Positions 12,307 through 46,936 of a DNA stretch of 61,759 bases are shown here, in pieces. Source of the DNA: Roseiflexaceae bacterium (GTDB lineage Bacteria > Chloroflexota > Chloroflexia > Chloroflexales > Roseiflexaceae). The DNA is taken from NCBI GenBank assembly GCA_014381165.1, contig JACMIM010000574.1, positions 1 to 61,759 of the forward strand, read 5' to 3'. The first letter of the stretch is position 1; each line of letters starts with the position of its first letter. Under the pieces are notes generated by a model. That model was not told where the DNA came from and did not search any database. It saw only the letters and a list, made by a program, of their open reading frames with translations. The position numbers and the translations under genes are program-made.

Positions 12307-12545
12307 AGCGACAATGCCGCCGTCGAACTCGTTCAGCCCGCCCAGCCGGACGAATTCGACCGGCTGCTCGGGTTTTCGTGTGCGCAGGATGGATGCCGCA
12401 TAAAGAGGCTGGTCATACTCTCTGCGGCACGCCGGTTCGCCCTGAACTAACTAGCAAGAGCAGAGAACCCAGGTACGCCACCCAGGACACAGCACGAAGC
12501 TGAATCATAGGTTTGCTCTCATACGAAAGACAAGGAAGCAGTACG

Positions 12546-31000: not shown

Positions 31001-31723
31001 TTAGTCCGTGCGCAGTGTCACAAGCATATATCCATGCCGCGGAACGGTGCGGATGTACACCGGCGCATCGGGAGCAGGTGCGAGCTTGGCGCGCAAATTG
31101 CGGATGTGCCAGCGCACCAAGCTCGGGTCGGTGACCTCTGGCGCATAGCCCCAAACGTGGGTGAGCAAGTGAGCGCTGGAAAAAACCTTGTCGGGGTTTG
31201 CCATCATGAAGCGCAACAGATCGAACTCAGCTGGTGTTAACGCGATCGACTTCTGGTCGATCTGCACCGTGCGAGTGTCGAGATCGAGCGCCAATGCGCC
31301 AACCACAAGGGCTGCGTGGGGTGGATTCAGCTTGGCGGGCGGCGCGGGCACCACCCGTTCACGGCGCAGCAACGCCCGCACTCGTGCTTTCAATTCGCGC
31401 AGGTCGAACGGCTTGGCGAGATAATCGTCGCCGCCTTCCTCCAACCCAGAGATTCGATCTTCGACCGCACTTTGCATGGAAAGAAACAGTACAGGCACTG
31501 CTGCCAAACCCGGATCGCGCCGGATCTGCCGGCAGAAGGCCATTCCGTCCATCTCCGGCATGGCGACATCAAGAATCACAAGGTCGGGACGATGGGCGCG
31601 CGCCAACCTGAGACCCACTGCACCATTGGCAGCGGTGCTAACCTCATACCCTTCGTCTTGGAGGCTGTAGCGAACAGCCCAGATTAAATCGGGTTCATCG
31701 TCGACGACAAGAATATGTGGCAT
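31001..31723 (-). CDS. OmpR-family response regulator
   Basis: The receiver has ILVVDDEPD and LVILDVAMPEMDG. The winged-helix output has LTPAEFDLLRFMMANPDKVFS...VRWHIRNLRAKL...IRTVPRHGY. Confidence 0.85.
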   Translation of the reverse strand: MPHILVVDDEPDLIWAVRYSLQDEGYEVSTAANGAVGLRLARAHRPDLVILDVAMPEMDGMAFCRQIRRDPGLAAVPVLFLSMQSAVEDRISGLEEGGDDYLAKPFDLRELKARVRALLRRERVVPAPPAKLNPPHAALVVGALALDLDTRTVQIDQKSIALTPAEFDLLRFMMANPDKVFSSAHLLTHVWGYAPEVTDPSLVRWHIRNLRAKLAPAPDAPVYIRTVPRHGYMLVTLRTD

Positions 31724-31735
31724 GTGGGCAATCCC

Positions 31736-32149
31736 CTAGATCAGGTGTACCATGCTATGGTTGGTGTTACGGGCGGCAGTCTGGCCTGCAATCGCTCGCA
31801 TTTCGCGCAGATTAAATGGCTTGGGTAGGAAGATGGTCAGTCGGCCTTCTTGAAGACCAGCAGCGGCCAGTTCGTCCTCACCGTGGCGGCTACCGGAGAT
31901 CAGCACAATCGCTGTTTCAGGGCGGCGCTGGCGTATCTGCGCGGCCACGTCAATGCCGCGCGCATCAGGCAACAGTGAATCGACGAATACCAGCGCGTGG
32001 TGAGTTTCATGCCACAAACGTAATGCTTCCAGGCCCAAACCTGTTGTGGTTACGGCATAGCCCAATGGCCGCAGCACGCTTTCGAAAAGCCAGCAGATAG
32101 CTGGTTCGTCGTCCACTACGAGAATACTCAGGGGTTGTTCAGGCATCAC
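31736..32149 (-). CDS. Single-domain (CheY-like) response regulator
   Basis: ILVVDDEPA, ALVFVDSLLPDARG (phospho-Asp present) and FLPKPF are present. Confidence 0.8.
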   Translation of the reverse strand: MMPEQPLSILVVDDEPAICWLFESVLRPLGYAVTTTGLGLEALRLWHETHHALVFVDSLLPDARGIDVAAQIRQRRPETAIVLISGSRHGEDELAAAGLQEGRLTIFLPKPFNLREMRAIAGQTAARNTNHSMVHLI

Positions 32150-33638
32150 GGTCTCTTAGTGTTGCAGGCAGTAGCAGCGTAAAGCTACTACCCTGCCCAA
32201 CCTGACTTTCAACCGTCAATACGCCATGATGCTGCTGCACAATGCTGTAGCACAGCGAAAGCCCTAGCCCTATCCCCTTGCCAATCGGGCGCGTGGTAAA
32301 GAACGGGTCGAAGACGCGCGCCAGATGCTCGGGCGCGATACCACACCCGCTGTCGATGACGCGCACCCGCACCTGCCCCACCCCACTATGATCCAATGCC
32401 AGTGTCAACGCGCCACCGTCGGGCATCGCCTCGCAGGCATTCAGCACAAGATTAACGAACACCTGCTGCAACAATGCGGTATTGCCCAACACCAGCGGCA
32501 GATCAGGCGCGGCACTGATGGTCAGATTGATCTGCTGCGCGAGAAGACGGTGACGCAGCAATAACAGCGCCGCGTCGAGCACCTGGCCGAGTTCGACTGC
32601 CGCCATCTGCTCGTACTGCGGGCTGGCAAACGTGAGTAAGTTCTCGATGATTTGCGCGGCGCGGCGGGTCGCAGTGTAGATCCGCTCGGCACATTCGCTT
32701 CGTAGCACTGGGTCGTCACTTGCCTCATCGAGCAACTGGACGCACGCCGAAATAATGCCTAGTGGGTTGCGTAGCTCGTGAGCGACCCCGCCCGCCATCA
32801 CGCCCAACGAAGCCATTTTTGCCGATTGGATGAGCTGCGCCTCCATCCGGCGGCGCTCGGTTAGATCGCGCCCCAGTGCAACGATCCCGACCACGCGCCC
32901 AGCTTCGTCGTGCATTGGCGAGCAGCTCCAGGCGATCGGTACACACCGCCCATCGGCAGTTAGGAGACTGGCTTCGGCGTGGCGCACTGCATCCTGGCTG
33001 CGTGGATCGGCAGCACAGCCCGCCAGCAGGTGCGCCAACGCCAAGCGACTAGCGTCGTCGCACATGGCGGTCAATGTGCGGCCATGCGCCTGCACTGCAC
33101 TGATGCCACACACACATTCCGCCGCGTGGTTCCAGGTGACAATCTGCCCACCGGGGTCAAGCGAGATCACCAGATCATTCGCACACTCGACTACTCGCGC
33201 CAGGCGCTGCTCGACCTGGCGTGCTTCGGCCTGAAACTGCTCTTGCGCCGTGATATCATCCATGAAAAGCAGCACGTATGGTGCGCCATCGTCGCCCTGA
33301 AGAGGAATGAGCCGATAGTAATAGATACGCTGAGGCAAGCCGGGAGCGCGGTAGGTCAGCTTGCCACCTTCGTGCGGCTGCCCGTCGTGAAGCAGGGCGC
33401 GCACTTTACCGGCCAGCTGCGTGTAGGTAATCAGCACTTTTGGAAACACCTGATCGAGTGTTCGCCCCAGTGTTGTCTCAGCAGTTCGGCGCGATTTCTG
33501 ATAGAAATTGCGGTTAGCGGCGACAACACGCTCCTGCTGGTTGATAACAAGCAGCGAGCTAGGGATCTGCTCCAAGATGCGTGCGGCAAACATTTCTGTG
33601 TGCGCTCGCTGACTAAGCGCAAAAGATGATCTGCTCAC
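32139..33638 (-). CDS. PAS-domain sensor histidine kinase
   Basis: Two PAS-like segments are present. The H box is GGVAHELRNPLG, the N box is NLVLNACEAM, and the G boxes are DSGCGI and GIGLGLS. GTG 33638 is preceded by GGGAG. The track start 33839 would overlap the upstream gene. Confidence 0.8.
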   Translation of the reverse strand: MSRSSFALSQRAHTEMFAARILEQIPSSLLVINQQERVVAANRNFYQKSRRTAETTLGRTLDQVFPKVLITYTQLAGKVRALLHDGQPHEGGKLTYRAPGLPQRIYYYRLIPLQGDDGAPYVLLFMDDITAQEQFQAEARQVEQRLARVVECANDLVISLDPGGQIVTWNHAAECVCGISAVQAHGRTLTAMCDDASRLALAHLLAGCAADPRSQDAVRHAEASLLTADGRCVPIAWSCSPMHDEAGRVVGIVALGRDLTERRRMEAQLIQSAKMASLGVMAGGVAHELRNPLGIISACVQLLDEASDDPVLRSECAERIYTATRRAAQIIENLLTFASPQYEQMAAVELGQVLDAALLLLRHRLLAQQINLTISAAPDLPLVLGNTALLQQVFVNLVLNACEAMPDGGALTLALDHSGVGQVRVRVIDSGCGIAPEHLARVFDPFFTTRPIGKGIGLGLSLCYSIVQQHHGVLTVESQVGQGSSFTLLLPATLRDRDA

Positions 33639-33670
33639 AGCTAACTCCCGCCATGCCAAAAGGCACCTAT

Positions 33671-34237
33671 CTATGCGTTGTCCTGCGCCGCTTGCTGACG
33701 CGGGCTGGTCCACGGCACATCTGGTAGACCGGCGCGGGCATTGGCGGCGCGTGCCAGCACAAAGCAAAGGTCGGATAACCGGTTGAGATACACCAGCACC
33801 TGCGAATTGACCGTTTCCTCGCGCGCGAGTGCAACACACCAGCGCTCGGCGCGGCGGCAGACGGTGCGGGCGAGGTGTAAATGCGCGGCGCTCAGGCTGC
33901 CGCCCGGCAAAATGAACTGGCGCAGTGGCTCTAGCTCGTGCTCCAGCATATCGATCGCCGTTTCCAGCGTCGATATCTCGGCCTCACCGACACGCGGAAT
34001 GTTGGCCGCCTCGCCAGGTGTCGCGAGATCGGCACCGACCACAAACAGCTGATCCTGAATCTGTGCCACCAGCGCATCAAGCCCAGCCTCCAGGCCACTG
34101 GCACGGGCTACACCAAGCACTGCGTTGGCTTCATCCACCGCACCATATGCTTGCACGCGCAAGGCATCTTTTCCGACGCGCTGCCCACCCCACAAACCAG
34201 TCTCCCCCAGATCGCCAGTTTTTGTGTAGATTTTCAT
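33671..34237 (-). CDS. PduO-type ATP:cob(I)alamin adenosyltransferase
   Basis: MKIYTKTGDLGETGLWGGQRVGKDALRVQAYGAVDEANA and FILPGGS...AHLHLARTVCRRAER are family signatures. Confidence 0.8.
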   Translation of the reverse strand: MKIYTKTGDLGETGLWGGQRVGKDALRVQAYGAVDEANAVLGVARASGLEAGLDALVAQIQDQLFVVGADLATPGEAANIPRVGEAEISTLETAIDMLEHELEPLRQFILPGGSLSAAHLHLARTVCRRAERWCVALAREETVNSQVLVYLNRLSDLCFVLARAANARAGLPDVPWTSPRQQAAQDNA

Positions 34238-34281: not shown

Positions 34282-34476
34282 GCATCCCTGCCGGAGTCGT
34301 AAAAAGGGGAGGTGGTTTTTTCGGGGCTGCGCCCCAAACCCCCGCTTTGCGCGCACGCGCATGGTTACACCTCAACTATAGCATCCCTGCCGGAGTCGTA
34401 AAAAGGGGAGGTGGTTTTTTCGGGGCTGCGCCCCAAACCCCGCTTTGCGCGCACGCGCATGGTTACACCTCAACTA
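34282..34476. repeat. Two tandem ~97-bp copies (99-bp period) of a GC-rich structured element
   Basis: Copy 1 is 34282-34378 and copy 2 is 34381-34476. They are identical except for one C in a C-run. Each contains the GGGGC-TGC-GCCCC and GCGCG-CA-CGCGC stems. Confidence 0.85.
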
Positions 34477-35158
34477 GGAATGCTATAGACAGGAGATCAT
34501 CGGCAGGTGCGCCGTCGATAAGTTGCCGCATGGCCAATTCAAGCACCTGCCCTTCCGCTAGGCAGCCGAGCGCCAGCAACTCGTGGCCCCAATCGGCCAA
34601 CAGCAGTGTTTGTGCGCCGTTGACAAGCTGTGTCACAGGGGCAAATTCGCCAAGCGATCGGCGTATGGTGTCCAATCCCACTGCAACCATTGCCGCGCGG
34701 GCCAGCAGCGCATCGGGCAGGCCCGCCGCCGCCAGCAGCCGCCCGTCGCGCCCGACCAGCGCAAGGCCTGATAGCGCGGGGCAGTCTAGCAGCAGCGCGG
34801 CCACATATTGCGCCGTAGGTCGTGCGGGCAGTGCCAAACCAATGTCCTCGCGATCGTCGCGTCGCCGCGCCGCCTCGAGGATCAGCCCTTCCCACTCGGC
34901 AGCCATTGTCAGGTCGTCGGGCAGCCGGTCAAGCTGCTCGAGCTGAAATTGCCCGCTTTCCCAGCCGACCAGTGAGTAGACTGCTTCCTCGCCGTTCTGC
35001 TGATCACAGTGCGCGCCGACAATCAGCCCCTCAAGGATGTCAATATGCGCCGCGCTCGCACCGCGCCACGCGCTGAGGCGGGCGGAACGACGCTCCTGGC
35101 AGATGGCTTGAAGGAGACTGGCCGCGCTGATCAGTGCAAAGTTACCAGTAAAAAGCAT
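34463..35158 (-). CDS. DUF4388-like N-terminal domain plus roadblock/LC7-like C-terminal domain protein
   Basis: GNFALISAASLLQAICQERRSARL...GEEAVYSLVGWESGQFQLEQ is DUF4388-like. The C-terminal LSGLALVGRDGRLLAAAG is roadblock-like. A GGAGGA SD sequence is present. Confidence 0.55.
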   Translation of the reverse strand: MLFTGNFALISAASLLQAICQERRSARLSAWRGASAAHIDILEGLIVGAHCDQQNGEEAVYSLVGWESGQFQLEQLDRLPDDLTMAAEWEGLILEAARRRDDREDIGLALPARPTAQYVAALLLDCPALSGLALVGRDGRLLAAAGLPDALLARAAMVAVGLDTIRRSLGEFAPVTQLVNGAQTLLLADWGHELLALGCLAEGQVLELAMRQLIDGAPADDLLSIAFLVEV

Positions 35159-35176
35159 AGCATCCTCCGCGTGCGG

Positions 35177-35755
35177 CTAGGCGTGCTGGCGAACCCGTGC
35201 AACCACGGTGTTCATGGCCGCTTTAAGCGTATCGAATACTCCCACGCCCCGTGTCGCCGAAGCTTCGAAACATTGACGGTTGGCAAAAGGACGGCGCAGG
35301 AGTTCGGTCGGAACGACATGCGGCAGGTCGCGCTTGTTGAACTGCACAATGATTGGAAATGTTCGCACATCGTGGCCCAACTCGACAAGGTGCTGCTCCA
35401 TGGTAAACCACGATTCCTGGTTTTCCGCCATGCGCCCGGCTTGAGAATCAGCCACAAAAACGATGCCATCCGTCCCTTGTAGAATAAGGCGTCGGCTGGC
35501 TGCGTAATACACTTGGCCAGGCACGGTGTAAAGCTTAAATTTAGGCTTCAAATTATTAATCTTGCCCATTTCAAGTTGCAAAAAATCAAATAAAAGTGTA
35601 CGCTCCTGCTGCGTTTTAAGCGAAATCAGCCGTCCGCGCATATGCGCGGGCGTTTTTGCGTGGATGTATTGCAGGTTGGTTGTCTTGCCGCTGAGTGCCG
35701 GTCCATAGTACACAATCTTCAGGTTCAGCTCACCTAATGCCCAATTGACAAACAT
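35177..35755 (-). CDS. mglA: MglA-like Ras-superfamily small GTPase
   Basis: NLKIVYYGPALSGKTTNLQYIH (P-loop), LYTVPGQVYY, GIVFVADSQ and QFNKRDLP are nearly collinear with MglA. Confidence 0.85.
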   Translation of the reverse strand: MFVNWALGELNLKIVYYGPALSGKTTNLQYIHAKTPAHMRGRLISLKTQQERTLLFDFLQLEMGKINNLKPKFKLYTVPGQVYYAASRRLILQGTDGIVFVADSQAGRMAENQESWFTMEQHLVELGHDVRTFPIIVQFNKRDLPHVVPTELLRRPFANRQCFEASATRGVGVFDTLKAAMNTVVARVRQHA

Positions 35756-35764
35756 AGCATACCT

Positions 35765-36244
35765 CTACCAGATAGTATTGAGCTGTGCAGAGAACTGGGT
35801 TTCAAAATCCTCGCTGACCGCTGGTGGCGGTGGGATCATCACGATATCGATCAGAACCTTGGCAATACGGACTGTGGTTTCTTTGATCGCCATGCGCGAC
35901 CAGCCTATCGGCACCTCGCGCGCGGTGACAATCAACAGCAGGAGGCCCTCGCCCACGCGCGACATCAGGACGGTGTGTTCGTCATGCTCCTGGATGATCA
36001 GGTTACATGTGCGTTTGCCGCCGATCAGGCGCGCGATTTCAAGTGTTGCCAGCAGCTCGCCAGCGGCCAGCGCGGCAATGCTCGAAACATCGAAGTTGCC
36101 CTGTGCGCTCCACGATGCGATCTCCTGTCCGCTCAAATCGGCGAGCAGCCCATACCGCACATCTACTTCACGGCCAATCCATTTCAAGCAGGTTTGCAGC
36201 TCGTTAAGCTGATCGACCGAAAGCGTGAGTTGCGAGTGGCGCAT
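35765..36244 (-). CDS. Roadblock/LC7 (MglB-like) protein
   Basis: It is of Roadblock size with the matching pattern (VRYGLLADLSGQEIASW...IIQEHDEHTVLMSRVGEGLLLLIV). ATG 36244 is preceded by AGAGGA. It lies directly upstream of the GTPase gene. Confidence 0.65.
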   Translation of the reverse strand: MRHSQLTLSVDQLNELQTCLKWIGREVDVRYGLLADLSGQEIASWSAQGNFDVSSIAALAAGELLATLEIARLIGGKRTCNLIIQEHDEHTVLMSRVGEGLLLLIVTAREVPIGWSRMAIKETTVRIAKVLIDIVMIPPPPAVSEDFETQFSAQLNTIW

Positions 36245-36331
36245 AGGGCGATCCTCTTTTTGGTGGACAAAGTGACCAACGACAAACGGCGGCAAGCAAA
36301 GCACGAAAACGTAGCTCGCTCGTGTGTCGTA

Positions 36332-37354
36332 CTACACGACCAGTGCAGTTTGTAACTCGCGCCCAAAAACGCGGTCGAACTCGGTACTCAGCGACAAACT
36401 GAACAGCGAGTCGAGCGACCGATTATCCTCGGTAGCGGTTGTCGAGCGTAAGCTATTTAGGCGCTCTGCTCCCCGCTTCATGATCAACATCGCCACACCA
36501 ATTTTGGGCGACATAAGGTGTTTATCGAATACGAGCGTGAGCAGCCAATCGCTGCCGACGTTGATCGAATACACATTGTAGTGCCGGCCCTCGTGGGCGC
36601 TAAAGTGCTGAGTTTCTGAATCCTGGAGCGTGCGCCCAAGCTCTACGGCGTTGATGAAACCACCCGCGACCAGCGACGTAAGCGCGGGAATATCCATGTT
36701 GCGTGTTTCACCCTGCTGGTCAATGATATGCCCAGTGGTATTGGTGTAGAGCGCCAGCTTTGCGTGGGCCTCGTGGCGGATCTCGTCCACCACTGCGGCA
36801 ACCTGGCGCGCATCGCGTTCAGCGCTGGCCGTGCTTCGTGGTTCTGGCGCAGCATTGTGTGCCGCGGGCGTAGAAATTATTTGGGCCATCAACTGCTCCA
36901 GCAGTACACGCAGGTCTGGTGCCGGAGTCGCCGCCGGTACGACCGTGCCCCTCAACTCCTTTGCAGAAATGAGTTCGATCAGGCTGGCATCGGAGTGACG
37001 CAGCAAAAGCAGTTGCGTATCTGGACAAGCAGTGCGCAACTTTCGGAGCACACTGAGTACGCTATTGCGGCGGCGCAGTGTTGCAACGACGAGCTGAAAG
37101 CAGGTAGGAAATCCCTGCACCGCTTCGGCGATAAATGCCTGCGCCGACTGGACGTGATAGGTGATACCCGGCAGCGGGCGTGCCGTCAACTCGTCGAGCA
37201 AGAAACGATAGGCATTGGGCGAATCTTCGATCAATAGGATGCGATATTCCACAGGGGAACTAGCCTTTCCGTGCTTGTGTGGTGTGACGACGATAGGAGA
37301 ATAAAGCCGCTCGACCTGTGTGCCACTCACTTCTGTGGTGTGGCTGGTAAACAT
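36332..37354 (-). CDS. Receiver-like domain lacking the phospho-acceptor Asp, fused to a roadblock/LC7-like domain
   Basis: RILLIEDSPNAY...FQLVVATLRRRNSVLSVLRKLR aligns to a REC fold, with Ala (codon 37082-37084) where the Asp is expected. The C-terminus is LYTNTTGHIIDQQG...YNVYSINVGSDWLLTLVF. Confidence 0.6.
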   Translation of the reverse strand: MFTSHTTEVSGTQVERLYSPIVVTPHKHGKASSPVEYRILLIEDSPNAYRFLLDELTARPLPGITYHVQSAQAFIAEAVQGFPTCFQLVVATLRRRNSVLSVLRKLRTACPDTQLLLLRHSDASLIELISAKELRGTVVPAATPAPDLRVLLEQLMAQIISTPAAHNAAPEPRSTASAERDARQVAAVVDEIRHEAHAKLALYTNTTGHIIDQQGETRNMDIPALTSLVAGGFINAVELGRTLQDSETQHFSAHEGRHYNVYSINVGSDWLLTLVFDKHLMSPKIGVAMLIMKRGAERLNSLRSTTATEDNRSLDSLFSLSLSTEFDRVFGRELQTALVV

Positions 37355-39390
37355 GGGACACTGAACGCAAACGTGCTGCCGCGCCCAGGCGTGCTTTCAG
37401 CCCATATTCGCCCTTTGTGTTGTTCGATGACTGTTTTTGCAATGGTTAGCCCCAGACCGCGCCCCGGAATCGTAGATTGCGCGGTGCTGGGCGCACGATA
37501 AAATGGGTCAAAGACGAGCGCTAGTTCATCCGGCGGCAGTCCCAGGCCATTATCCGTCACCACTACCTGCACCTGATCCAGCGCCATACCAACAGTAACC
37601 GTGATCAGCGCGCCAGTCGGGCTATATTTGATCGCATTGTCGATAATTGCTCCAATAGCCCGCCCGATGCTTTCTTCATCGGCGTAGACGCGCGGCAGGC
37701 TCGCGGCAATGTTGGTTGTCACCTGTTGACCGCGCCGGCCAAACTCGGCGTACTGGGTGCCGACAGCTGCCTCGACCAACAGATCGAGCCGCAGTGGAAT
37801 CCTGTGTTCCGCTGACTGGAGCCGAATCTGTCCTAGCGCCAGGAGATCATTGACCAGCATTGATAGCTCGCTATTGAGCTTGACGACTTCGCCGATCAGT
37901 TGCGCCTGCTGCTCGTTGAGCTGCCCAGCGGCAGGTACTTGCATGATTAGGTTGCGCAGCGACTGGAGCGGCGAGCGTACAATGTTGGAGAAACTCAACA
38001 AGAAATGTTCATTTCGCTCACCAGTATTGGCTGGCTCGGCAGGCGCGGCTGGCACGTTGGACGTGGGCGCTGCGGGCGCGTTTGCTATAGGCTCGATCAC
38101 GAATGCCCAAAGTTCTGGGCCTAGCTCGCTCACAGTGGCGGTGGCAGCGCGCCCATCAGGCAGTTCGATCACATGCGACCCGCCGAGTTCACCCATCAGT
38201 GCCTCGGTCAGAACTGGGGCGAGCACCCACGCGCCGCCCGCAACGAGCGACCGCCCAATGAATTGACCGGAAAGGTGCAACATCTGCACCGCAGCGTCGG
38301 TCGCCGCAGCGATATGGCCGTGGGCATCGCTCAACAACACTGCCTCGTGCAAACGCTGTAACAGCGCCAACTGCGCGGTTGCCCCAGCCTGGCGGGGCGC
38401 GGGTATGGCGGCGCGCCGTGGCTGCGAAGGCGCAACCGGCAGCGGCGTTGGACGCAGCGCAGCAGAGAACGCGCCACTCAGCCCATTCAGGTTGGCGCGC
38501 ACTGCAACTGGCAGCAGGCGGTCGCTGGCCGTCAACAACACGCCCCACACCTCGCCCGCGCGCATGAGCGGCGCGGCATACAGCGCCCGCCCGCCTTGCC
38601 AATCTCCACGCTGCCCGTTCTGCTCGGCTCGTGCTGTCGGCGCGGCACTGACCGGGCCACGCTCACGCGCGACTTGGGCTAGGATCGTTGATTGCACAGG
38701 CAGGCTACCGGGATTTGTGTCACCCTCGTAGGCCAGCACAAGCAGCCGCTGCTGGTCAGCGTCGAACTGCCCAAGTAACACCTGCCCGCCTGGGTGCAAC
38801 AGCTGGCGCACGGCGGGCAGGCGTAGACACATGGCCAGATCTGTGTGGCTAACAAGTGCCTCCGCCAGCTTCAGCCAGCTTTGCTCCTGCGGCATAAGTG
38901 CTGCCAAATCGGCAGCCTGGAGCGCTGGATCGGCGCACAGTGCCACGGCAACACGGCCGATAAACGCACGCTGGTGTTCCTGGTCACACAGTGAGTTCAG
39001 GCTATAGGGCATATCACCCATTTGCGAGAGCGTAAGTGCAATCTGGTCGGCGTACTCGGGATCGGTGAGTAACCGCACCCGGTAGCCATTGGGTTCGGCG
39101 CTTGCCAGCAGTGTGAGCGCCCCATGTGGCCCAGCAATAACCAAAAAGGGATCATCGCCAAATACGCGGGCAACTGAGATCAGCGGCGATACGCCATTGC
39201 CTGTGCCGTGAACGAGCTGGTCGAGCGCGCCGCCAAGCAAGCAGATGCTCTGCGGATCGGTCGGTCGCTCCTGAATCAGCAGTTTGCCAAGCCGGGTGAA
39301 CTGAGCAGTGCTGAGAAAGCAGCCTGTATCAGTGGGCGGCAAGCCGATTAGATGTGCCAAATGCCACGTTGTCGGTTGATATACCTGCAC
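37327..39390 (-). CDS. GAF/PAS-containing histidine-kinase-like protein with Asn at the phospho-His position
   Basis: GTG 39390 is preceded by AAAGGA, 12 nt after the upstream stop. The H-box region reads FLLSFSNIVRSPL (Asn codon 37984-37986). The N box IIDNAIKYS and the G boxes DNGLGL and GRGLGL are intact. Confidence 0.7.
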   Translation of the reverse strand: MQVYQPTTWHLAHLIGLPPTDTGCFLSTAQFTRLGKLLIQERPTDPQSICLLGGALDQLVHGTGNGVSPLISVARVFGDDPFLVIAGPHGALTLLASAEPNGYRVRLLTDPEYADQIALTLSQMGDMPYSLNSLCDQEHQRAFIGRVAVALCADPALQAADLAALMPQEQSWLKLAEALVSHTDLAMCLRLPAVRQLLHPGGQVLLGQFDADQQRLLVLAYEGDTNPGSLPVQSTILAQVARERGPVSAAPTARAEQNGQRGDWQGGRALYAAPLMRAGEVWGVLLTASDRLLPVAVRANLNGLSGAFSAALRPTPLPVAPSQPRRAAIPAPRQAGATAQLALLQRLHEAVLLSDAHGHIAAATDAAVQMLHLSGQFIGRSLVAGGAWVLAPVLTEALMGELGGSHVIELPDGRAATATVSELGPELWAFVIEPIANAPAAPTSNVPAAPAEPANTGERNEHFLLSFSNIVRSPLQSLRNLIMQVPAAGQLNEQQAQLIGEVVKLNSELSMLVNDLLALGQIRLQSAEHRIPLRLDLLVEAAVGTQYAEFGRRGQQVTTNIAASLPRVYADEESIGRAIGAIIDNAIKYSPTGALITVTVGMALDQVQVVVTDNGLGLPPDELALVFDPFYRAPSTAQSTIPGRGLGLTIAKTVIEQHKGRIWAESTPGRGSTFAFSVPCLPATPQK

Positions 39391-39401: not shown

Positions 39402-40478
39402 CTACAGCGCGGCCTGGGCCACGCGCAGCAGTGTGATGGCCTCGTGCGCGATATATTCGGGCAACTCGTGGCTCATAGCTTGGGCAAGTGCGGCATAACT
39501 TTGGCGCAACGGGGTATCGGGCAGCCCCTGCGTTGCGAACCAATGCTGCATCCAATGGGTGTATGATACGAGGCCCGCCGGGCTGTGCTGCGCAAGCCCA
39601 TCGGCCAGGTAGGCCACATACCAGCCTACCTCCAGGGCGGCCTGCTCTGGCTGTGCGGCCAGCCCCTGCGCAACAAGCTGCTGTGCGACCACGAAAACCA
39701 GGGTGTCTTGTGCGGCAAGCAGCGCGCGGCCTGATTCGTTCTCCGGCAGCAGCGCGCTTTGCGCCCCGTTCAACAGCCGCCGGATTTGTGCGGCGGCTGT
39801 TGGTGGCAGTCGCTGTTCGGCGGATTGCGTCAGCAGCCAAAACCATTGTTGCATATGCGTCGTCGTCAGGTGACGCTGCCACAGCCGTTCGCGCATCCAG
39901 TGGGCGTGTTGGGTAAACACGGAATCATGGCGCGTGCCAACTGCGTCAAGCGCGTAATCGAGCAAAAACCACACATCATACAGCGCCCGCTGGCGGCCCT
40001 CCTCGCCATAAGCTGCCTGCCAGTGCCAGTGGGCGTCATAGCTTCCAGCAATGGCATCCTCGGCCAGCAACTCGTGCGCAGCGGCGATCTGCGGGGTGTG
40101 TGGGTCGCTGTAGGCAAGTGCGTTCAGCCCTCCCATCAGGTAATCGTAGATCACCGGCAGCCCGTCTGCTGGCATCTGCGCGCTGATAGCCCCCCAAAGA
40201 TGGGCATAGCTTTGGCGCATGACACCGGTTGTACAGGCGTGTTTGACCAGCATCTCGCGCCGCCAGCGCATATGGTCTTCGTTGATCATCGGCGAGCGGT
40301 AGCGTACCGATTTAACTAACGCCGCCAAATTGAGTTCCATATCCAGCAGGTAACGCTCGCGCCCGCTGTTTGGGAAGCGCTCGATCAGCAGCCAATCCTG
40401 TGTCATCAGGTCGACCGTCTGAGCAAGGATAGCTGGGCGAGCGGTGTCAAGCTGTTTGGCAATTGCAAGATGATCCAT
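39402..40478 (-). CDS. Hypothetical all-helical protein built from three ~105-aa repeats
   Basis: Three collinear repeats share H-x-(R/H)-W, (R/Q)Q(S/W)(Y/F), a (M/L)P and an AL end. One such set is DHMRWRRE...MRQSYAHLW...QMP...LNAL; another is QHAHWMRE...MQQWFWLL...RLP...QSAL; a third is YTHWMQH...LRQSYAAL...ELP...QAAL. Confidence 0.55.
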   Translation of the reverse strand: MDHLAIAKQLDTARPAILAQTVDLMTQDWLLIERFPNSGRERYLLDMELNLAALVKSVRYRSPMINEDHMRWRREMLVKHACTTGVMRQSYAHLWGAISAQMPADGLPVIYDYLMGGLNALAYSDPHTPQIAAAHELLAEDAIAGSYDAHWHWQAAYGEEGRQRALYDVWFLLDYALDAVGTRHDSVFTQHAHWMRERLWQRHLTTTHMQQWFWLLTQSAEQRLPPTAAAQIRRLLNGAQSALLPENESGRALLAAQDTLVFVVAQQLVAQGLAAQPEQAALEVGWYVAYLADGLAQHSPAGLVSYTHWMQHWFATQGLPDTPLRQSYAALAQAMSHELPEYIAHEAITLLRVAQAAL

Positions 40479-40487
40479 ACTGGCCCT

Positions 40488-42596
40488 TTATTTTCGGAAG
40501 GTGTCGGCGAGCTGACGCACAATCTGGCGGATGTCACCTTCGAGAAACTGCCCGGCGATGCGCGACCGCAGGTCAGGACGCTCATAGAATGCCATGCCGC
40601 CAAAGATGAACATCGGGCGGGGCGGCTCGACCCGCGCAATAATCTGCCCAACCTCGGTCAAGCTATGGGCTGCCTCGATAGTTGTCGCGGAAAGACCAAG
40701 CACTTGGGGGCGAATCTGGCGGATAGCTTCTTCGATGGTCGTGTTTGGTACGTTTTGCCCAAGGTAGATCACGCGAAAGCCGCTCCAGCGCATAAACAGC
40801 GAAAGCATGATTGCACCAAGCTCGTGAAGTTCGTTTTGCGCACAGCCGATCACTGCCAGCGGGCCACCGGGGCTATCCACATACGCATTGAGCAGGGTAA
40901 GCAGCTTGCCCTCGACAAAGCGGCTGGTAAAGTGTTCCGCCGCTACAGAAACCTCGCCACGGTGCCAGCCCTCGCCAACCGCAATCTGCACCGGCATCAG
41001 CAACTCGGTGCAAATCTCTTCGGTGGCATATACACCGCACGCTTCTTGCCAAACATACTCGGCGCTGCGCTGGTCGAATGCAATCAATGCGCCCATCATG
41101 CGCTTCTGGAGCATCGGCCAGCTTCGGTCGTTGAATGGATCCGGCGCAGCCAGCACTAGCCCCGGTGGGATCTGCTTTGCCGGGGCCACTGTAGATGATG
41201 GTGGAGCCGCCACTTGCCCGCCGCGCATCCAGGCTGGCAAGCCAAACCCGCCCGGCGCAGCGGCAGTAGGTGCCGTTGCCGCAGGCGCTTCCACTTGCGT
41301 GTTGGCCGCGCTGCCATTGAGTGCTTGGAATGGTGCCGCTGGAAACGAGGGCGGGCTGAAGGTTGGCGCAGTTTTTGCAGGTGAAGCTGCGCCGTTCGCC
41401 GGTACGGTAGGCACGACAGCACGTGATGGCGGCGCGGCCACTGCTGGCGCTGTGGCAGCCGCAAACGAAGGCATCGCCGCCGGCGATGTTTGCTGGATCG
41501 CCCGCCCGCTCATGATCTGCCCCAGCAGCGCCGCCACAGCCACCACGATCTGCGCAGTTGGCGCGTCGTGCGGTTCCGGCTCGTGTAGTCCGGCCAGCAG
41601 CACACCCCACACGCGGCCTTGGACATAGATTGGCACCGCGATGGCCGAAAGCGCGTCGGGTAGTAGCTCCTGATCCAAGCTGCCAGCTAGCAAGGTGCCC
41701 AGCGCTGGCACTCCTTGTTGCGCGGCCTGCCCAGCCAAGCCCTGCGTCGCACTGATCGCCGCCATTGGGCGCGTGCTACTCCACACCGCTGGGTTGAGTA
41801 CGTTTCCATCGGAGCGGTAGCAGAGTTCGCCCAACGTGCCAGCGCTGCGAAGCACCTGAATGGCTTCAGCAAGCGTCTGCTCGTCCGATTGTTCAGCAGT
41901 GGTCAGGATTTCGAGCAGGTAGGGAAGATCGTACAAACTGGGCAGCAGATTAAGCCGTTTGCATTCCGGATGCGTTGCCAAGCCATATGCAATCTGTGCC
42001 CAGCGGGCTTTGTTTGCAAAATGATCACGCTGGACGACAGGAGCCATGGGCTGCTGTTGCATCAGGCTGAGCAGCAACCCGGCCCGCTTGACAATCCGCT
42101 CGTCGGCGGAAAGCGCGCCCTCGAAACGGTAGCGCCGCATTGTGCCACCGGTGCGCTCCGCCACTGCCTGCGTGAGCAGCGCAGCCCAAAAGCCCGGGCT
42201 ATCTACGATCAGAAACCATTCTTGACACAGTGGTGTGTTGGGCTGAAGGGCAACAAAGGTAACTCCCGGCATGGTTGGCGGCTCGATATCGGCCTCACCA
42301 TAAACCGTCACACTGCGGCACACGCGGCTCAACTGCGCGATGCGCCCCTGGTGAAGCCGAAAAAGTGAGAACCGCAGCACGCCGAATGAAAGATCTGCGG
42401 GCAAGTGCTCATCTTGCACCAAAAGCTCAAGCTGACGCCCAATAATAACCAGCGCATCAGCGGGGTGGTGTAGTCGCCGCTCCACTGGCACATCGCCCAC
42501 CAGCCTAGCAAGCGATGGACCGGTGGCACGCGACGGAGTCGAGGAACTTGATGCGATCATAAGATTTACCCCATACACTAACTGAGTATACGACAC
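40488..42596 (-). CDS. DICT-like / GAF / Ala-Pro-rich linker / CarH-type B12-binding (light-sensor) multidomain protein
   Basis: The C-terminus carries GWHRGEVSVAAEHF, the W-x9-EH motif (40932-40967). It also carries NELHELG, the E-x-H-x-x-G lower-ligand His (codon 40824-40826), in a Rossmann-like B12-binding fold. The N-terminal 180 aa are DICT-like (from memory) and the middle is GAF-like (IAVPIYVQGRVWGVLLAG). The start is uncertain (GTG 42596 or ATG 42560). Confidence 0.75.
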   Translation of the reverse strand: MSYTQLVYGVNLMIASSSSTPSRATGPSLARLVGDVPVERRLHHPADALVIIGRQLELLVQDEHLPADLSFGVLRFSLFRLHQGRIAQLSRVCRSVTVYGEADIEPPTMPGVTFVALQPNTPLCQEWFLIVDSPGFWAALLTQAVAERTGGTMRRYRFEGALSADERIVKRAGLLLSLMQQQPMAPVVQRDHFANKARWAQIAYGLATHPECKRLNLLPSLYDLPYLLEILTTAEQSDEQTLAEAIQVLRSAGTLGELCYRSDGNVLNPAVWSSTRPMAAISATQGLAGQAAQQGVPALGTLLAGSLDQELLPDALSAIAVPIYVQGRVWGVLLAGLHEPEPHDAPTAQIVVAVAALLGQIMSGRAIQQTSPAAMPSFAAATAPAVAAPPSRAVVPTVPANGAASPAKTAPTFSPPSFPAAPFQALNGSAANTQVEAPAATAPTAAAPGGFGLPAWMRGGQVAAPPSSTVAPAKQIPPGLVLAAPDPFNDRSWPMLQKRMMGALIAFDQRSAEYVWQEACGVYATEEICTELLMPVQIAVGEGWHRGEVSVAAEHFTSRFVEGKLLTLLNAYVDSPGGPLAVIGCAQNELHELGAIMLSLFMRWSGFRVIYLGQNVPNTTIEEAIRQIRPQVLGLSATTIEAAHSLTEVGQIIARVEPPRPMFIFGGMAFYERPDLRSRIAGQFLEGDIRQIVRQLADTFRK

Positions 42597-43029: not shown

Positions 43030-43290
43030 AGCCGGGAAGTTGGTGACCGAGCACGGCATGGGAGTGACACACGTTGCGTGCGATAGCGAGTATGAGCAGG
43101 AAGGGAACCTGCTGGGACAATGCCGTGATGGAGAGGTTTTTTGCTTCTCGCAAGCCGAGATTGGGGTTGATGTCTTTGACGCGCGCGCGCGGAGCTGTGT
43201 GTTTGACGACATCGAACGGAGGAGTATCTTCGTTGTGTTCAGCATTCCTCCTGAAAGACTCTGATGGGTTGCGCTGTTGATGACCATAGT
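43030..43290 (+). pseudogene. IS3-family transposase (OrfB C-terminal) remnant
   Basis: SMSRKGTCWDNAVMERFF is the IS3 integrase-core motif. Frame-shifted remains follow (LKAEIGVDVFDARA...). The remnant overlaps the 3' end of the WD40 gene. Confidence 0.5.
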
Positions 43291-44264
43291 ATGAGGTCAC
43301 ATCGATGACTGCCGCTGACAAACATCTGGCCGTCTGGGTTCCACGCTGCTACGGCTAGGGCATTATCGTGTGCATGAAACCTCCGATAAGTTCCGCGCTG
43401 CGTATCCCAGAGAAAAACCGCTCCCAGGTCGCCGCTCAGGAGAACTTGAACATCCTTCGGACGCCACGTCAACGATTGTGGTAACGAGCGCGGCAAATCG
43501 ATAGTATCGATGACACTTTGTTTTGGAACATCCCATAGCTTAATCGTGTTATCGTTACTACCGCTGGCCAGCATCATTCCATCAGGACTCCAGGTGACTG
43601 AACGAACATTACTGCTATGCGCATCAAGTCGATCACGAATGCGCTGCTGTGCTAAATCCCAGAGATCAATGTTCGAGCCAGATCCGCCTTCGGCCAGCGT
43701 AGACCCATCAGGACTCCAGGCCAGTGACAAAACTGCCCCACCACCAGCTCTGCTGTCACCAGTCAATCGATGGGTAATAGTCGCTGTAGCGGTATTCCAA
43801 ATGACGATTCCACCACTCATGGCCCCACTAGCGAATTGAGTACTATCAGGACTAAACGCGATTGTGGCCACTCCAAGGAGGTGAACCGCCTGGGCAGCAC
43901 GTAGCTTCCACGTTGCTACTTCCCAGAGCCGTAGCATGCCAGTAGAATGACCAGCCACTAAAGTTGTCCCATCGGGACTCCAGGCCAACGACTGAATTGA
44001 TGCTTCTGAGTTGGGTTTATCAGATAATGTTGTGAGCAAAACGCCATCGCTCACTCGCCAAATCTTAACGACTTCAACACCACCTGCGCTAGCAATCATA
44101 GTGCCGTCTGGACTAAAGACGACAGCCAGAACAGCATCCCGTTTGCTTAAAGGCGCTTGACCTCGTGGTACCGTGCAGCCGCTTAAAAAGCTGAACGTCC
44201 CAAGTACCGCCAAGATAGAGACAATACCAACAGACCGAGCCACTGCTTTATTCATGAAACACAT
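43239..44264 (-). CDS. WD40-repeat lipoprotein
   Basis: A signal peptide with the lipobox FLSGC is present. About 7 repeats follow the pattern SPDG..LASG..D..I.LWD. The last blade and C-terminus appear to be replaced by IS3-remnant sequence. Confidence 0.75.
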   Translation of the reverse strand: MCFMNKAVARSVGIVSILAVLGTFSFLSGCTVPRGQAPLSKRDAVLAVVFSPDGTMIASAGGVEVVKIWRVSDGVLLTTLSDKPNSEASIQSLAWSPDGTTLVAGHSTGMLRLWEVATWKLRAAQAVHLLGVATIAFSPDSTQFASGAMSGGIVIWNTATATITHRLTGDSRAGGGAVLSLAWSPDGSTLAEGGSGSNIDLWDLAQQRIRDRLDAHSSNVRSVTWSPDGMMLASGSNDNTIKLWDVPKQSVIDTIDLPRSLPQSLTWRPKDVQVLLSGDLGAVFLWDTQRGTYRRFHAHDNALAVAAWNPDGQMFVSGSHRCDLILWSSTAQPIRVFQEEC

Positions 44265-44824: not shown

Positions 44825-46936
44825 TTGTGCGTAAAAGTCGGTAGACTTTTGTGTCGAAAGGATGCGTTCGTGGCTAATCCGACAGCTGCTCATTGTTCCC
44901 CTCATCGCAGGCGATCACGCTTGTACACTGCCCTGCTTACGTGTGCGCTCGCAGTGCTGGCGCTTGGTGTTGCGCCCGTGCTGGCCGCAACGATTGCGTG
45001 GAAGAGCGACGCAGACGGTAGTTGGACAACGGCGAACAACTGGTTGGGCGGCACGGTGCCGAATAGCAGTGCGGATACCGCAGTCCTTGGTGATGTGATT
45101 CAAGCTCCGCGCACGATTACGATTGCTGGCGTGGCCATCACGGTCGGTGACATGCGCTTCACGAGTGCGCAGCCGTACACGATCGCCGCAACGAACGGCG
45201 GGAGCTTGGCCTTAGACGGGCCTGGAACCACAAGTATCAGCGCGATGGGTGGGGCTCACACGGTCACTGCGCCGGTCACACTGCGCGATTCGCTGGTGGT
45301 TAGTGGCGACGCACCAATTATCTTCACCAGTCTGACGAGTACCGCTGGTGGTAATCGGCTCATCCGTGTTGATGGTACGGCAGCCGCGAGCTTTGCGAAG
45401 CTCGTTGATCCAACGGGTGGCCGGAGCCTGCGCAAGCAGGGTGCTGGTACGCTCAATCTCCAGGTGAGCGGCACGAACAACACAGGTGCTGCCAGCGGGT
45501 TCATCCGAAACGACGAGGGCAGCGGGCAACTCAACCTGTACGGCGCGGGCAACGTCGGGGCGATTACCTATAACGCCGCCACGGGCGGCGGTACGCTCGG
45601 CATTGGCGACAGCTTAGACTTCGCACGGGCAGGCAGCACGCCGCCCGCACTCCTACGCGGCACTGGTATCTTGGCGGTTTCAGGAAGCGTCTTTTTTGAT
45701 GCAAACCCGCCTGAGGCGTCGAACACCACGCTTCAGATCGATCTTAATGGCCCGCAGGTGGGCAGTGGCTACGACCAATTGCGCGTCGTTGGCAACGTCA
45801 ACAATAATGGCAGTATCCGGCTGAACAACACGACACTGGCTATCGCGCTTGGTACGACCCTAGCGTCCCGCGAGCGCTTTGTGATCGTCGCCCGTAGCCA
45901 GGGCAGTGCAGCGGCAGCAACCGGGCGCATAAGCGGGACATTTCTGGACTTGCCCAATGGTGCCGTTCTCGCGCCGCAGGACGTACCCCTCCTGATCAGC
46001 TACACGGACAACACGGTGGAACTCACGCGTCTGCTGACACCAACACTCGCTGCAACGAGCGGTGCGGGTACACTCATCGTCGGTGAGACCACCTCCGTTG
46101 TGGCAACCGTTGTTGATGCCGACGCCATCCCGATTCCTGGTGTCCGTGTGACCTTTGCTGCGCCCGACGCTGGGCCGAGCGTCAGCTTCCCAGATGGCAA
46201 CACGGTTCTCACTGACAGCGAGGGCCACGCGAGCATCCTCGTGCGTGCCAATACGAATGTTGGGAGCTACACGGTCACGGCTGTGTTTGGCCCCGCCGTG
46301 ACCGTGCCAGCCAGTTTTGCCCTGACGAATATGGCTGGCCCTGCCGCTGCAATCGAGCCATTAGGCGGAACGCCGCCGGAAGCGGAGGTCGGCACCACAT
46401 TCACGGCACCCCTACGCGCCCACGTGACGGACGCCGCTGGCAACCCCGTAAGCGGCGTGACCGTCGTGTTCGCTGCGCCAACCACCGGGCCGAGTGGCCG
46501 TTTCGCAGGCGATCCCGCAGTGACGACTGACGCAGCGGGCGTGGCCACCGCACCAGCCTTCGTCGCCAATCAAGACGCGGGAAGTTACAACGTTAGCGCA
46601 CACGTCAATGGTGTTGCGGCGTCCGCGAACTTTGACGTAACGAACCGGCCTGCACTGCCGACCCCAACACCCCCAACGCCTACCGCTACCGCCTCGCCTA
46701 CCGCTACCGCCACCGCTACCGCCTCGCCTACCGCCACCGCTACCGCCACCGCCTCGCCTACCGCCACCGCATCGCCTACCGCCACGCCTACCGCTACCGC
46801 TACCGCCACCGCCTCGCCTAGTCCCACTGCTATACACAATCCTACTACCGCGCCTGCCCCGATTGCCACACCGATGCCAACTACAACCACCTGGCAGCGC
46901 TATCTTCCGCTTATTTTCGGGTACGGCAACGAGTAG
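44825..46936 (+). CDS. Large secreted protein with beta-strand repeats, two bacterial Ig-like (Big_1-type) domains and a Thr/Ala/Pro repeat linker
   Basis: The signal-like segment is LYTALLTCALAVLALGVAPVLA. The Ig-like segments are VATVVDADAIPIPGVRVTFAAP and AHVTDAAGNPVSGVTVVFAAP. The start is uncertain. Confidence 0.65.
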   Translation: MCVKVGRLLCRKDAFVANPTAAHCSPHRRRSRLYTALLTCALAVLALGVAPVLAATIAWKSDADGSWTTANNWLGGTVPNSSADTAVLGDVIQAPRTITIAGVAITVGDMRFTSAQPYTIAATNGGSLALDGPGTTSISAMGGAHTVTAPVTLRDSLVVSGDAPIIFTSLTSTAGGNRLIRVDGTAAASFAKLVDPTGGRSLRKQGAGTLNLQVSGTNNTGAASGFIRNDEGSGQLNLYGAGNVGAITYNAATGGGTLGIGDSLDFARAGSTPPALLRGTGILAVSGSVFFDANPPEASNTTLQIDLNGPQVGSGYDQLRVVGNVNNNGSIRLNNTTLAIALGTTLASRERFVIVARSQGSAAAATGRISGTFLDLPNGAVLAPQDVPLLISYTDNTVELTRLLTPTLAATSGAGTLIVGETTSVVATVVDADAIPIPGVRVTFAAPDAGPSVSFPDGNTVLTDSEGHASILVRANTNVGSYTVTAVFGPAVTVPASFALTNMAGPAAAIEPLGGTPPEAEVGTTFTAPLRAHVTDAAGNPVSGVTVVFAAPTTGPSGRFAGDPAVTTDAAGVATAPAFVANQDAGSYNVSAHVNGVAASANFDVTNRPALPTPTPPTPTATASPTATATATASPTATATATASPTATASPTATPTATATATASPSPTAIHNPTTAPAPIATPMPTTTTWQRYLPLIFGYGNE
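46679..46820 (+). repeat. Imperfect tandem repeat inside a CDS, encoding (PTATATAS)n
   Basis: CCTACCGC(T/C)ACCGCC...TCG units are reiterated about 6 times. It is a coding low-complexity linker. Confidence 0.8.

Follow-up and report, generated by a model that had tools for sequence, protein, structure and literature searches.

Organization of the gene cluster

The DNA analysed here is contig JACMIM010000574.1 of a Roseiflexaceae bacterium (assembly GCA_014381165.1, positions 1-61,759; this whole stretch is called the window), and our subject is a cluster of genes that encodes a Ras-like GTPase of the MglA type, its partner MglB, a PATAN-domain protein, a histidine-kinase-like protein and a receiver-like domain fused to a second MglB-type roadblock domain. 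The kinase-like protein was found to lack the phospho-acceptor histidine and the receiver-like domain the phospho-aspartate. Next to them lie the genes of a candidate cobalamin-based light sensor and of a 358-amino-acid (aa) helical protein. All the genes of interest are on the minus strand and close-packed, with intergenic gaps of 9-87 nucleotides (nt); the PduO gene is set off from the PATAN gene by a 225-nt gap. The coordinates are collected in Table 1.

Table 1. Positions of the cluster genes, the two lost acceptor sites and the adjacent two-component system in the window
Feature	Position	Strand	Basis or remark
DICT-GAF-B12-binding_2-B12-binding sensor, CarH-type cobalamin domain	40488..42596	(-)	Pfam and NCBIfam; true start may be 12-25 codons inside the open reading frame (ORF)
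All-helical protein of 358 aa, probably with two domains of phycocyanin-like (photoglobin / biliverdin-binding) type	39402..40478	(-)	
His-less histidine-kinase-like protein, 687 aa: conserved N-terminal region, GAF, PAS-like, degenerate DHp, intact HATPase_c	37327..39390	(-)	
Asn469 codon, phospho-His position of the DHp H-box	37984..37986	(-)	phmmer alignments and HisKA register
Asp-less receiver domain fused to MglB-type roadblock with C-terminal helix, 306 aa, GTG start	36332..37252	(-)	
Thr codon, phospho-Asp (D57) column of the receiver-like domain	37079..37081	(-)	three independent alignments
MglB, stand-alone roadblock, 159 aa	35765..36244	(-)	Robl_LC7, NCBIfam MglB; longest ORF starts at 36304
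MglA, Group-1 Ras-like GTPase	35177..35755	(-)	homology to M. xanthus and T. thermophilus MglA
PATAN (DUF4388) domain and divergent roadblock domain	34463..35158	(-)	Pfam DUF4388; C-terminal profile match
PduO-type ATP:cob(I)alamin adenosyltransferase, makes adenosylcobalamin	33671..34237	(-)	Pfam Cob_adeno_trans, E 1.9e-60
Canonical two-component system (PAS-HisKA-HATPase kinase, receiver of a single domain, OmpR-type regulator)	31001..33839	(-)	Pfam HisKA, E 2.4e-12
PAS kinase of this system	32139..33839	(-)	
Single-domain receiver of this system, 137 aa	31736..32149	(-)	
OmpR regulator of this system	31001..31723	(-)	

Loss of the phospho-acceptor histidine in the kinase-like protein

The kinase-like protein gave a strong match to Pfam HATPase_c (E 1.7e-26, 93 bits) and a fragmentary one to HisKA (E 0.1). 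The weak HisKA match begins at profile position 14, which is R472, i.e. right after the expected histidine, and N469 is thereby placed at the acceptor position. In agreement with this register, the phmmer alignments to VicK (4i5s), WalK (5c93, 4u7n) and HK853 (4jas) all set SFSNIVRSPL opposite VSHELRTPL, and the phospho-acceptor histidine of the HisKA H-box (S-H-E-L-R-T-P-L) is thus missing. The sequence-only reading, made earlier from the letters of this stretch, had named the same asparagine at this position, and alignments of the kind that it had proposed as a check found both acceptor residues, that of the kinase and that of the receiver, missing. The phosphatase motif adjoining the H-box histidine (E/D-x-x-T/N) is absent as well; the window protein reads N-I-V-R-S and the orthologues N-I-I-R-V/M at this place.

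A kinase-like orthologue was found at 29 distinct genome or metagenome loci, and this locus set was used throughout. The acceptor position is occupied by Asn in 22, Arg in five, Asp in one and His in one of them, so that the histidine is lost in 28 of the 29, and six database relatives with 46-51% identity all read FSN there. The histidine of NEHF (H462 of the 687-aa protein), which had been considered earlier as a possible acceptor, was rejected, as the orthologues carry S, R, A, T, N or Q in its place, and no other conserved histidine was found in the DHp of the kinase-like orthologues.

The ATP-binding domain, on the other hand, is intact. Its N, G1, F and G2 boxes (DNAIKYSP, DNGLGL, FDPFYRA, GRGLGLTI) are invariant in six family members, including D584, N585, D613, G615, G617 and G643-G647, so that the claim that the protein keeps its N and G boxes held for the F box too. 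A weak GAF domain and a PAS-like segment were also detected; the C-terminus ends in ...CLPATPQK and no HAMP match was obtained.

Some variation among the loci was observed. Five of them (L017, 9489-11543; L018; L019; L020; L028) form a sub-clade that reads FSRIIHVPL in place of FSNIIRVPL, with Arg at the acceptor position and His at +3, which looks like a swap of the H and R of the H-box, and the orthologue at L027 has Asp at the acceptor position (FSDIIRVPL). A second kinase-like protein of 527 aa (DICT and HATPase_c, no HisKA match) flanks the His-less kinase in loci of rearranged gene order and was seen at L003 (9517-11100), L029, L031, L032 (3629-5212) and L025. The contig of L032 starts inside the B12 gene, and a BchL-like gene is present further along it.

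Loss of the phospho-aspartate in the receiver-MglB fusion

The start of the receiver-MglB protein was assigned to the GTG at 37252 (MEYRILLIED) from the homologues and the gene caller, and not to the ATG at 37354. A word-indexed homologue search with this protein returned two proteins, whereas an exhaustive HMMER search yielded 424 relatives, many of them aligned end to end. Their alignment contains one group with a textbook receiver (DD, D57, T87, K109; Pfam PF00072) on the same MglB-like domain, and a second group, including the window protein, in which D57, T87 and K109 are lost.

A profile built from the N-terminal domains of the Chloroflexales proteins alone matched solved receivers over the full length (FleR, 7w9h, E 1.2e-8, residues 1-125; 4q7e, E 6.5e-5), with FrzS (2gkg) among the weak matches (E 0.27), and in the AlphaFold2 model (pLDDT 80) a (beta-alpha)5 fold precedes a roadblock fold. 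In the Foldseek search with this two-domain model the roadblock half prevailed, and receiver structures were not ranked separately; the assignment to the receiver fold therefore rests on the full-length alignment to PF00072-bearing REC-MglB proteins, the AlphaFold2 model and the profile search. The C-terminal half is MglB-like (E 3.3e-11 to M. xanthus MglB; Foldseek E 6.5e-12, TM 0.82), with M. xanthus and T. thermophilus MglB as its closest structural matches. The earlier description of a receiver-like domain fused to a roadblock was thus borne out by AlphaFold2, Foldseek and the MglB match in the PDB. The receiver-roadblock model also aligned over its full length to the eukaryotic Rag/Gtr GTPases, which join a G domain to a roadblock; with a TM of about 0.3 and a high root-mean-square deviation, this is an architectural resemblance only.

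In three independent alignments the phospho-Asp column is filled by the threonine encoded at 37079-37081. The absence of the aspartate had been noticed before, but the residue given for it, the alanine at 37082-37084, is the preceding one, an error of a single position. None of 22 orthologues has Asp in this column; T, S, A, V, P, G, N or R is found instead. At the T87 and K109 columns the window protein carries Arg and Pro, respectively, and the orthologues are variable, while the acidic pair after beta1 is partly retained (E-D). An alternative acceptor aspartate was also considered and rejected, since the domain has no conserved Asp, and its near-invariant columns are a few hydrophobic ones. 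In a neighbour-joining tree, 15 Asp-less proteins formed one clade apart from 25 Asp-bearing ones; this tree was midpoint-rooted, had no bootstrap and is indicative only.

MglA, MglB and the PATAN protein

The GTPase gave an E value of 4e-62 to M. xanthus MglA (53% identical) and of 1e-58 to T. thermophilus MglA. Besides a P-loop, it has the intrinsic Arg finger at R53, a Thr that replaces the G3 Asp (TxxGQ), the catalytic Gln and NKxD, and the equivalents of R53, T78, Q82 and NKRD are kept in all the MglA orthologues (ERTLLFDF, TVPGQ, NKRD). According to the criteria of Wuichet and Søgaard-Andersen (PMC4316618), it falls into Group 1 on account of its Arg finger, TxxGQ and NKRD. The label "MglA-like" given earlier was therefore right as to family and understated, as the protein is a genuine MglA of Group 1 and its gene has mglB directly upstream, in the classical mglBA arrangement. 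The stand-alone roadblock, which had also been recognized from the sequence, proved MglB-like by Pfam (Robl_LC7, 1.9e-5), NCBIfam (MglB, 1.3e-12) and the PDB (M. xanthus MglB, E 2.8e-9); its orthologues likewise have 159 aa, and it is predicted to act as GTPase-activating protein (GAP) on MglA.

The P-loop of the GTPase (residues 18-26, GPALSGKT) carries Ala at the residue equivalent to MglA Gly21 / Ras Gly12. The same Ala occurs in all the Chloroflexales MglA orthologues (GPALSGKT or GAALSGKT) and in three of the Anaerolineae type. Because the G21V substitution lowers the kcat of Thermus MglA about 7-fold (PMC3000849), GTPases with this P-loop Ala may, by analogy, hydrolyse GTP slowly or respond differently to MglB.

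The PATAN protein matched Pfam DUF4388 (E 2e-15), as had been expected from its earlier description as a DUF4388-roadblock protein. Its roadblock half was recovered at profile level only (Robl_LC7 structure 7f8m, E 3e-4); BLASTP of the C-terminus against the two other roadblocks of the window gave no match, and in a comparison with the MglB alignment by hhalign the probability was only 4%. The protein also aligns with REC-PATAN-Robl_LC7 proteins of other Chloroflexota (Anaerolineae), and the C-terminal domain is accordingly a putative roadblock that rests solely on the PDB profile search and on these Robl_LC7-bearing relatives. At about half of the loci (L009-L013, L015, L017, L020, L022, L024, L025 and L027) the PATAN domain stands alone as a protein of 104-116 aa, and at the remaining ones, including the window, the protein has 213-231 aa and the roadblock-like C-terminal domain.

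Candidate light sensor

The B12 protein matched Pfam B12-binding (3.7e-13), B12-binding_2 (5.4e-11) and DICT (1.6e-6), and over its residues 496-685 the closest named family was CarH (NCBIfam, 9.6e-29). The signature of light-responsive cobalamin domains has been described as GxxW / Wx9EH, GxxH with the lower axial His, and GxxxP (PMC11796333). Among 31 orthologues of the B12 protein, GWHRGEVSVAAEHF (Wx9EH) was invariant, as were GxxW and GxxxP (GQNVP in the window), and ExHxxG was kept; the lower axial His lies in the sequence NELHELG of the window protein, for which most orthologues read GELHE[IL]G. The protein thus carries the light-responsive, CarH-type signature, and it is predicted to bind adenosylcobalamin and to respond to light, which agrees with the photoreceptor that had been proposed upstream of the kinase gene.

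The gene of the 358-aa protein adjoins the B12 gene in 20 loci. Matches to Pfam Phycobilisome (PF00502) were obtained for nine of 15 orthologues, the best with E 4.9e-6. When seven orthologues were scanned singly, the matches were mostly below the Pfam gathering score and covered about residues 256-356, in one case also 3-116, and the family profile matched phycocyanin in the PDB weakly (E 0.14). A single-sequence structure model reached a pLDDT of 46 and was not used for a fold search. We tentatively regard this protein as phycocyanin-like, of the photoglobin type. Stand-alone photoglobins have been reported beside B12-binding genes (PMC8717448), and experiments have demonstrated photoreceptors that combine B12 with a bilin (PMC10979010). 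The PduO gene is found at the same position in six other loci, i.e. in seven including the window. No cobalamin sensor linked to a small GTPase was found in PMC8717448 or PMC11796333.

Conservation of the cluster and a canonical counterpart of the Anaerolineae type

In a scan of species-representative genomes, the kinase-like protein was found in Chloroflexales only (Oscillochloris, with the culturable O. trichoides DG6 as locus L016, Viridilinea and metagenome-assembled genomes of Chloroflexaceae), together with one match labelled Gracilibacteria. The latter (L027, JAAUTF010000138.1) is a full Chloroflexales-type cluster under a Candidatus Gracilibacteria label, which is probably a binning error. 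The order B12 / 358-aa / kinase-like / (REC-MglB) / MglB / MglA / PATAN is kept in 26 of the 29 loci, the three exceptions being truncated contigs or contig ends, and the B12 gene is almost always adjacent to the kinase-like gene. Since it recurs across distinct Chloroflexales loci, the arrangement is far beyond chance. The idea of gene decay was rejected, as the genes are intact, share 30-85% identity across the 29 loci and have invariant functional motifs; judged from the compared sequences, the absence of the phosphotransfer residues from both partners is a conserved trait of the lineage and not the decay of a single genome.

At one locus (L001, a JGI contig of 95 kb) neither the receiver-MglB nor the MglB gene lies between the kinase-like gene and mglA. 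A 54-codon ORF (12223-12401) takes their place, and there is no stand-alone MglB near this MglA.

A parallel operon with an Asp-bearing REC-MglB was found on contigs of the Anaerolineae type (loci L037-L039). Its order is REC-GAF-HisKA-HATPase kinase (SLAHEINNPL), OmpR regulator, REC-MglB, REC-PATAN(-roadblock), roadblock, MglA, roadblock and REC-GAF, and no description of such a two-component-MglA operon was found in the literature searched. It shares with the Chloroflexales cluster the REC-MglB-like fusion, the PATAN-roadblock protein, MglB, MglA (58-60% identical) and a sensor kinase heading the cluster. However, the Anaerolineae-type kinase is a true HisKA kinase whereas that of Chloroflexales has no His; the Anaerolineae-type REC-MglB has Asp, Thr and Lys whereas the Chloroflexales receiver is degenerate; and the N-terminal REC of the PATAN protein is gone from the Chloroflexales version. 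The Anaerolineae-type operon further has an OmpR regulator and lacks the B12, photoglobin-like and PduO genes. The B12 sensor, the putatively phycocyanin-like protein and the adenosylcobalamin-forming enzyme, the last in seven loci, would thus appear to be gains of the Chloroflexales version.

A two-component pair probably converted into a binding-based link

Taken together, we lean towards the view that the cluster is a Chloroflexales-specific MglA/MglB switch in which a former two-component pair would now serve as a phosphotransfer-incompetent link to a light sensor, and we hold this to be somewhat more probable than its alternatives combined. The existence of the canonical counterpart and the single clade formed by the Asp-less proteins are the reasons to assume that a two-component-controlled MglA module was converted. 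The data suggest that light may reach the GTPase through protein binding and not through phosphotransfer. Conversion of a two-component pair was also the proposal of the sequence-only reading; it fits in that both acceptor residues are lost, that the loss is conserved and that a canonical counterpart exists, but the pair is not obligatory, as genes are missing in some loci, and a role of the kinase-like protein as pure scaffold is unproven and may be put forward as a supposition.

In the mechanism that we propose, light would photolyse the adenosylcobalamin of the B12 sensor, perhaps with tuning by a bilin of the 358-aa protein, and the change in the sensor would be passed to the GAF/PAS kinase-like protein. 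The DHp helices of the latter may then hold or release the receiver-like domain, docking as kinase-regulator pairs do, without transfer of phosphate. Because roadblock domains function as dimers, the roadblock of the fusion might pair with MglB or with the PATAN-roadblock protein and in this way affect either GAP action towards MglA or where the complex is located. The level or position of MglA-GTP would finally set the direction or activity of the gliding apparatus, with the PATAN domain as the likely contact to a pilus-type motor, as in Synechocystis, where PATAN is an output domain that binds PilB1/PilC and sets the phototactic orientation (bioRxiv 10.1101/2021.06.11.447907).

Several observations weigh against this reading, and the first of them concern the kinase-like protein. 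The orthologue of L032 (1211-3436), on an uncultured Chloroflexaceae contig, retains a canonical H-box (ISHTLRDPL), and five orthologues have a His three residues downstream of the acceptor position. The invariant ATP boxes would be unexpected for a pure scaffold and suggest an ATP-dependent activity, so that nucleotide binding or an unconventional kinase activity appears to be still under selection. The protein might accordingly be an enzyme that uses ATP on a non-canonical acceptor, such as a Ser, Thr or Tyr of the receiver-MglB, MglB or PATAN proteins or the +3 His of the FSRIIHVPL sub-clade, or binding and hydrolysis of ATP might make it a conformational timer, a role that has been proposed for the conservon kinase. 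The strong HATPase_c match, the invariance of all the ATP-binding motifs among members roughly 45-50% identical and the changing acceptor residue (N, R, D or H) with a nearby His in some orthologues would fit such an enzyme, and Ser kinases of the GHKL family, e.g. SpoIIAB and RsbW, do exist. Nevertheless, neither the DHp nor the receiver-like domain offers a conserved Ser, Thr, Tyr, His or Asp as candidate, and in its DHp-CA architecture the protein matches a standard HisKA kinase and not an anti-sigma Ser kinase; we therefore consider this explanation unlikely.

Secondly, a canonical histidine kinase-response regulator-response regulator system lies next to the cluster, after the PduO gene, and could be a real supply of phosphorylation. 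The H-box of its PAS kinase is intact (GVAHELRNPL) and the receivers of the trio have Asp, Ser/Thr and Lys. The His-less protein could then modulate this system, either by binding its single-domain receiver, as DivL does with DivK~P, or by forming a heterodimer with its kinase. Consistent with this, the trio is linked to the cluster not only in the window but also in about a dozen other loci, where it is divergent and upstream of the B12 gene, i.e. despite a differing orientation, and DivL provides a precedent for the binding of DivK~P (PMC9430884). On the other hand, many loci with enough flanking sequence (e.g. L001, L005, L008, L031) have no such trio close to the cluster, elsewhere the trio either has the PduO gene between it and the MglA genes or is divergent from them, and no sequence feature ties the two kinases together. 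This explanation seems distinctly improbable to us.

Thirdly, the receiver-MglB gene is absent in four loci and the MglB gene in one. Where REC-MglB is absent the kinase-like protein must have another partner, and the pair is thus not obligatory. Orthology of the kinase-like protein with the Anaerolineae kinase is, as judged from their sequences, not established; the two share 26-27% identity and are no closer than unrelated kinases.

Finally, the motility output of the cluster is conjectural. MglA homologues have non-motility roles in other bacteria, and the cluster might govern filament polarity, division or development, with a cobalamin domain that senses B12 availability or redox state and not light. 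Phototaxis is moreover unreported in Chloroflexota (PMC11804611), and some cobalamin-binding domains are not photoreceptors (PMC11796333). Against such a sensor of B12 stand the Wx9EH, GxxW and GxxxP motifs, invariant in 31 orthologues, with CarH as closest named family, and the co-location of a putatively phycocyanin-like partner and an adenosylcobalamin-forming enzyme; besides, the B12 module is present only in the version of the phototrophic Chloroflexales and not in the Anaerolineae type. We regard this explanation as very unlikely.

Returning to the converted two-component pair, its most far-reaching form would be a natural light-gated small-GTPase switch, in which a photoreceptor with adenosylcobalamin, perhaps along with a bilin, controls MglA via the His-less kinase and the Asp-less receiver purely by regulated binding. 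This form is tentative and we think it possible, though rather doubtful. If true, it would mean an unrecognised light-controlled gliding or reversal response in filamentous anoxygenic phototrophs and a concerted conversion of a whole pathway (kinase, REC-MglB and REC-PATAN) to phosphorylation-independence.

Environmental input to MglA-type switches is known in detail only for Myxococcus, with its Frz chemosensory system, and the present cluster suggests that another phylum uses another input. Should the model hold, it would make light-controlled movement of Chloroflexales accessible to tests at the molecular level, would provide a clear example from nature of a kinase and a receiver that jointly lost their phosphorylation sites while a canonical, ancestor-like version persists in relatives, and would offer a green-light, B12-based module for small-GTPase control of possible interest to optogenetics. 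Should the kinase-like protein instead be active on another residue, this would be new chemistry for a HisKA-type kinase.

Comparison with known systems

The cluster is a member of the MglA/MglB module family, and pseudo-kinases and pseudo-receivers are already known singly. With the MglA-MglB module of M. xanthus and T. thermophilus it shares the Arg finger, the Thr for the G3 Asp, the catalytic Gln and the position of mglB directly upstream. With the RomR-MglC-MglB system of M. xanthus it shares a receiver-type protein and a second roadblock paralogue, and in M. xanthus the receiver protein, the roadblock paralogue and MglB form a complex (PMC10329633). However, receiver and second roadblock are separate proteins there, whereas they form one polypeptide here, with a receiver that lacks Asp. 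In further contrast to M. xanthus, the cluster has no RomR, RomX, RomY or Frz genes, its input appears to be a B12 sensor and a His-less kinase and not a chemosensory system, and the P-loop carries Ala at G21. The likeness to RomR-MglC-MglB would therefore concern a possible mode of working and not homology to RomR.

The actinomycete conservon, whose presumed output is its GTPase and not a transcription factor (PMC4316618), also encodes a kinase-like protein, a roadblock protein and an MglA-family GTPase together, and the cluster had been called conceptually close to it. The resemblance turned out to be a loose analogy. The conservon consists of the kinase-like CvnA, the roadblock CvnB, the DUF742 protein CvnC and the GTPase CvnD, and no protein of the cluster has a DUF742 match; its kinase is a membrane HAMP protein with an LPxR tail (PMC4316618), whereas the kinase here is predicted to be soluble, with GAF/PAS; and its GTPase belongs to Group 2, without intrinsic Arg finger, whereas the present one is of Group 1. 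The receiver-like, PATAN and B12 components go beyond the conservon set. Conservon membership was rejected on the grounds of DUF742, GTPase group and kinase architecture.

Precedents were found for each of the two degenerate partners. DivL of Caulobacter is a DHp-CA protein that has no acceptor His and exerts its signalling function through binding to a receiver domain, and FrzS of M. xanthus is a receiver without phospho-Asp that works in the MglA polarity network. In both cases one partner is degenerate, DivK being phosphorylated and FrzS having no dedicated pseudo-kinase, whereas here both co-encoded partners are. The CarH-type photoreceptors, photoglobins and photocobilins share with the sensor side the domains B12-binding_2 and B12-binding with Wx9EH, GxxW, ExHxxG and GxxxP and a putatively phycocyanin-like neighbour (PMC8717448, PMC10979010, PMC11796333); unlike CarH-type photoreceptors, the sensor here has no DNA-binding or enzymatic output domain but has DICT and GAF, with small-GTPase genes downstream. 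The PATAN domain is shared with the PatA-type regulators of cyanobacterial phototaxis, from which the present protein differs in having no receiver and in being fused to a roadblock or, in about half of the loci, alone; PATAN genes near mglA/mglB have been noted earlier (PMC4316618). In the literature searched there was no description of REC-MglB fusions, of an Asp-less clade paired with a His-less kinase, or of a link between a cobalamin photoreceptor and MglA.

Other features of the window

An Rfam scan of the whole window revealed no cobalamin riboswitch and no other RNA family, and in a promoter and terminator scan the signal was not above the shuffled expectation. Beyond the B12 gene, a gene on the plus strand (44825-46936) encodes a predicted secreted protein of 703 aa, the C-terminal end of which is a long run of (S/A)PTAT-type Pro/Thr/Ala repeats, and adjoining it on the minus strand (43239-44264) is the gene of a WD40-repeat protein with a lipoprotein-like N-terminus.

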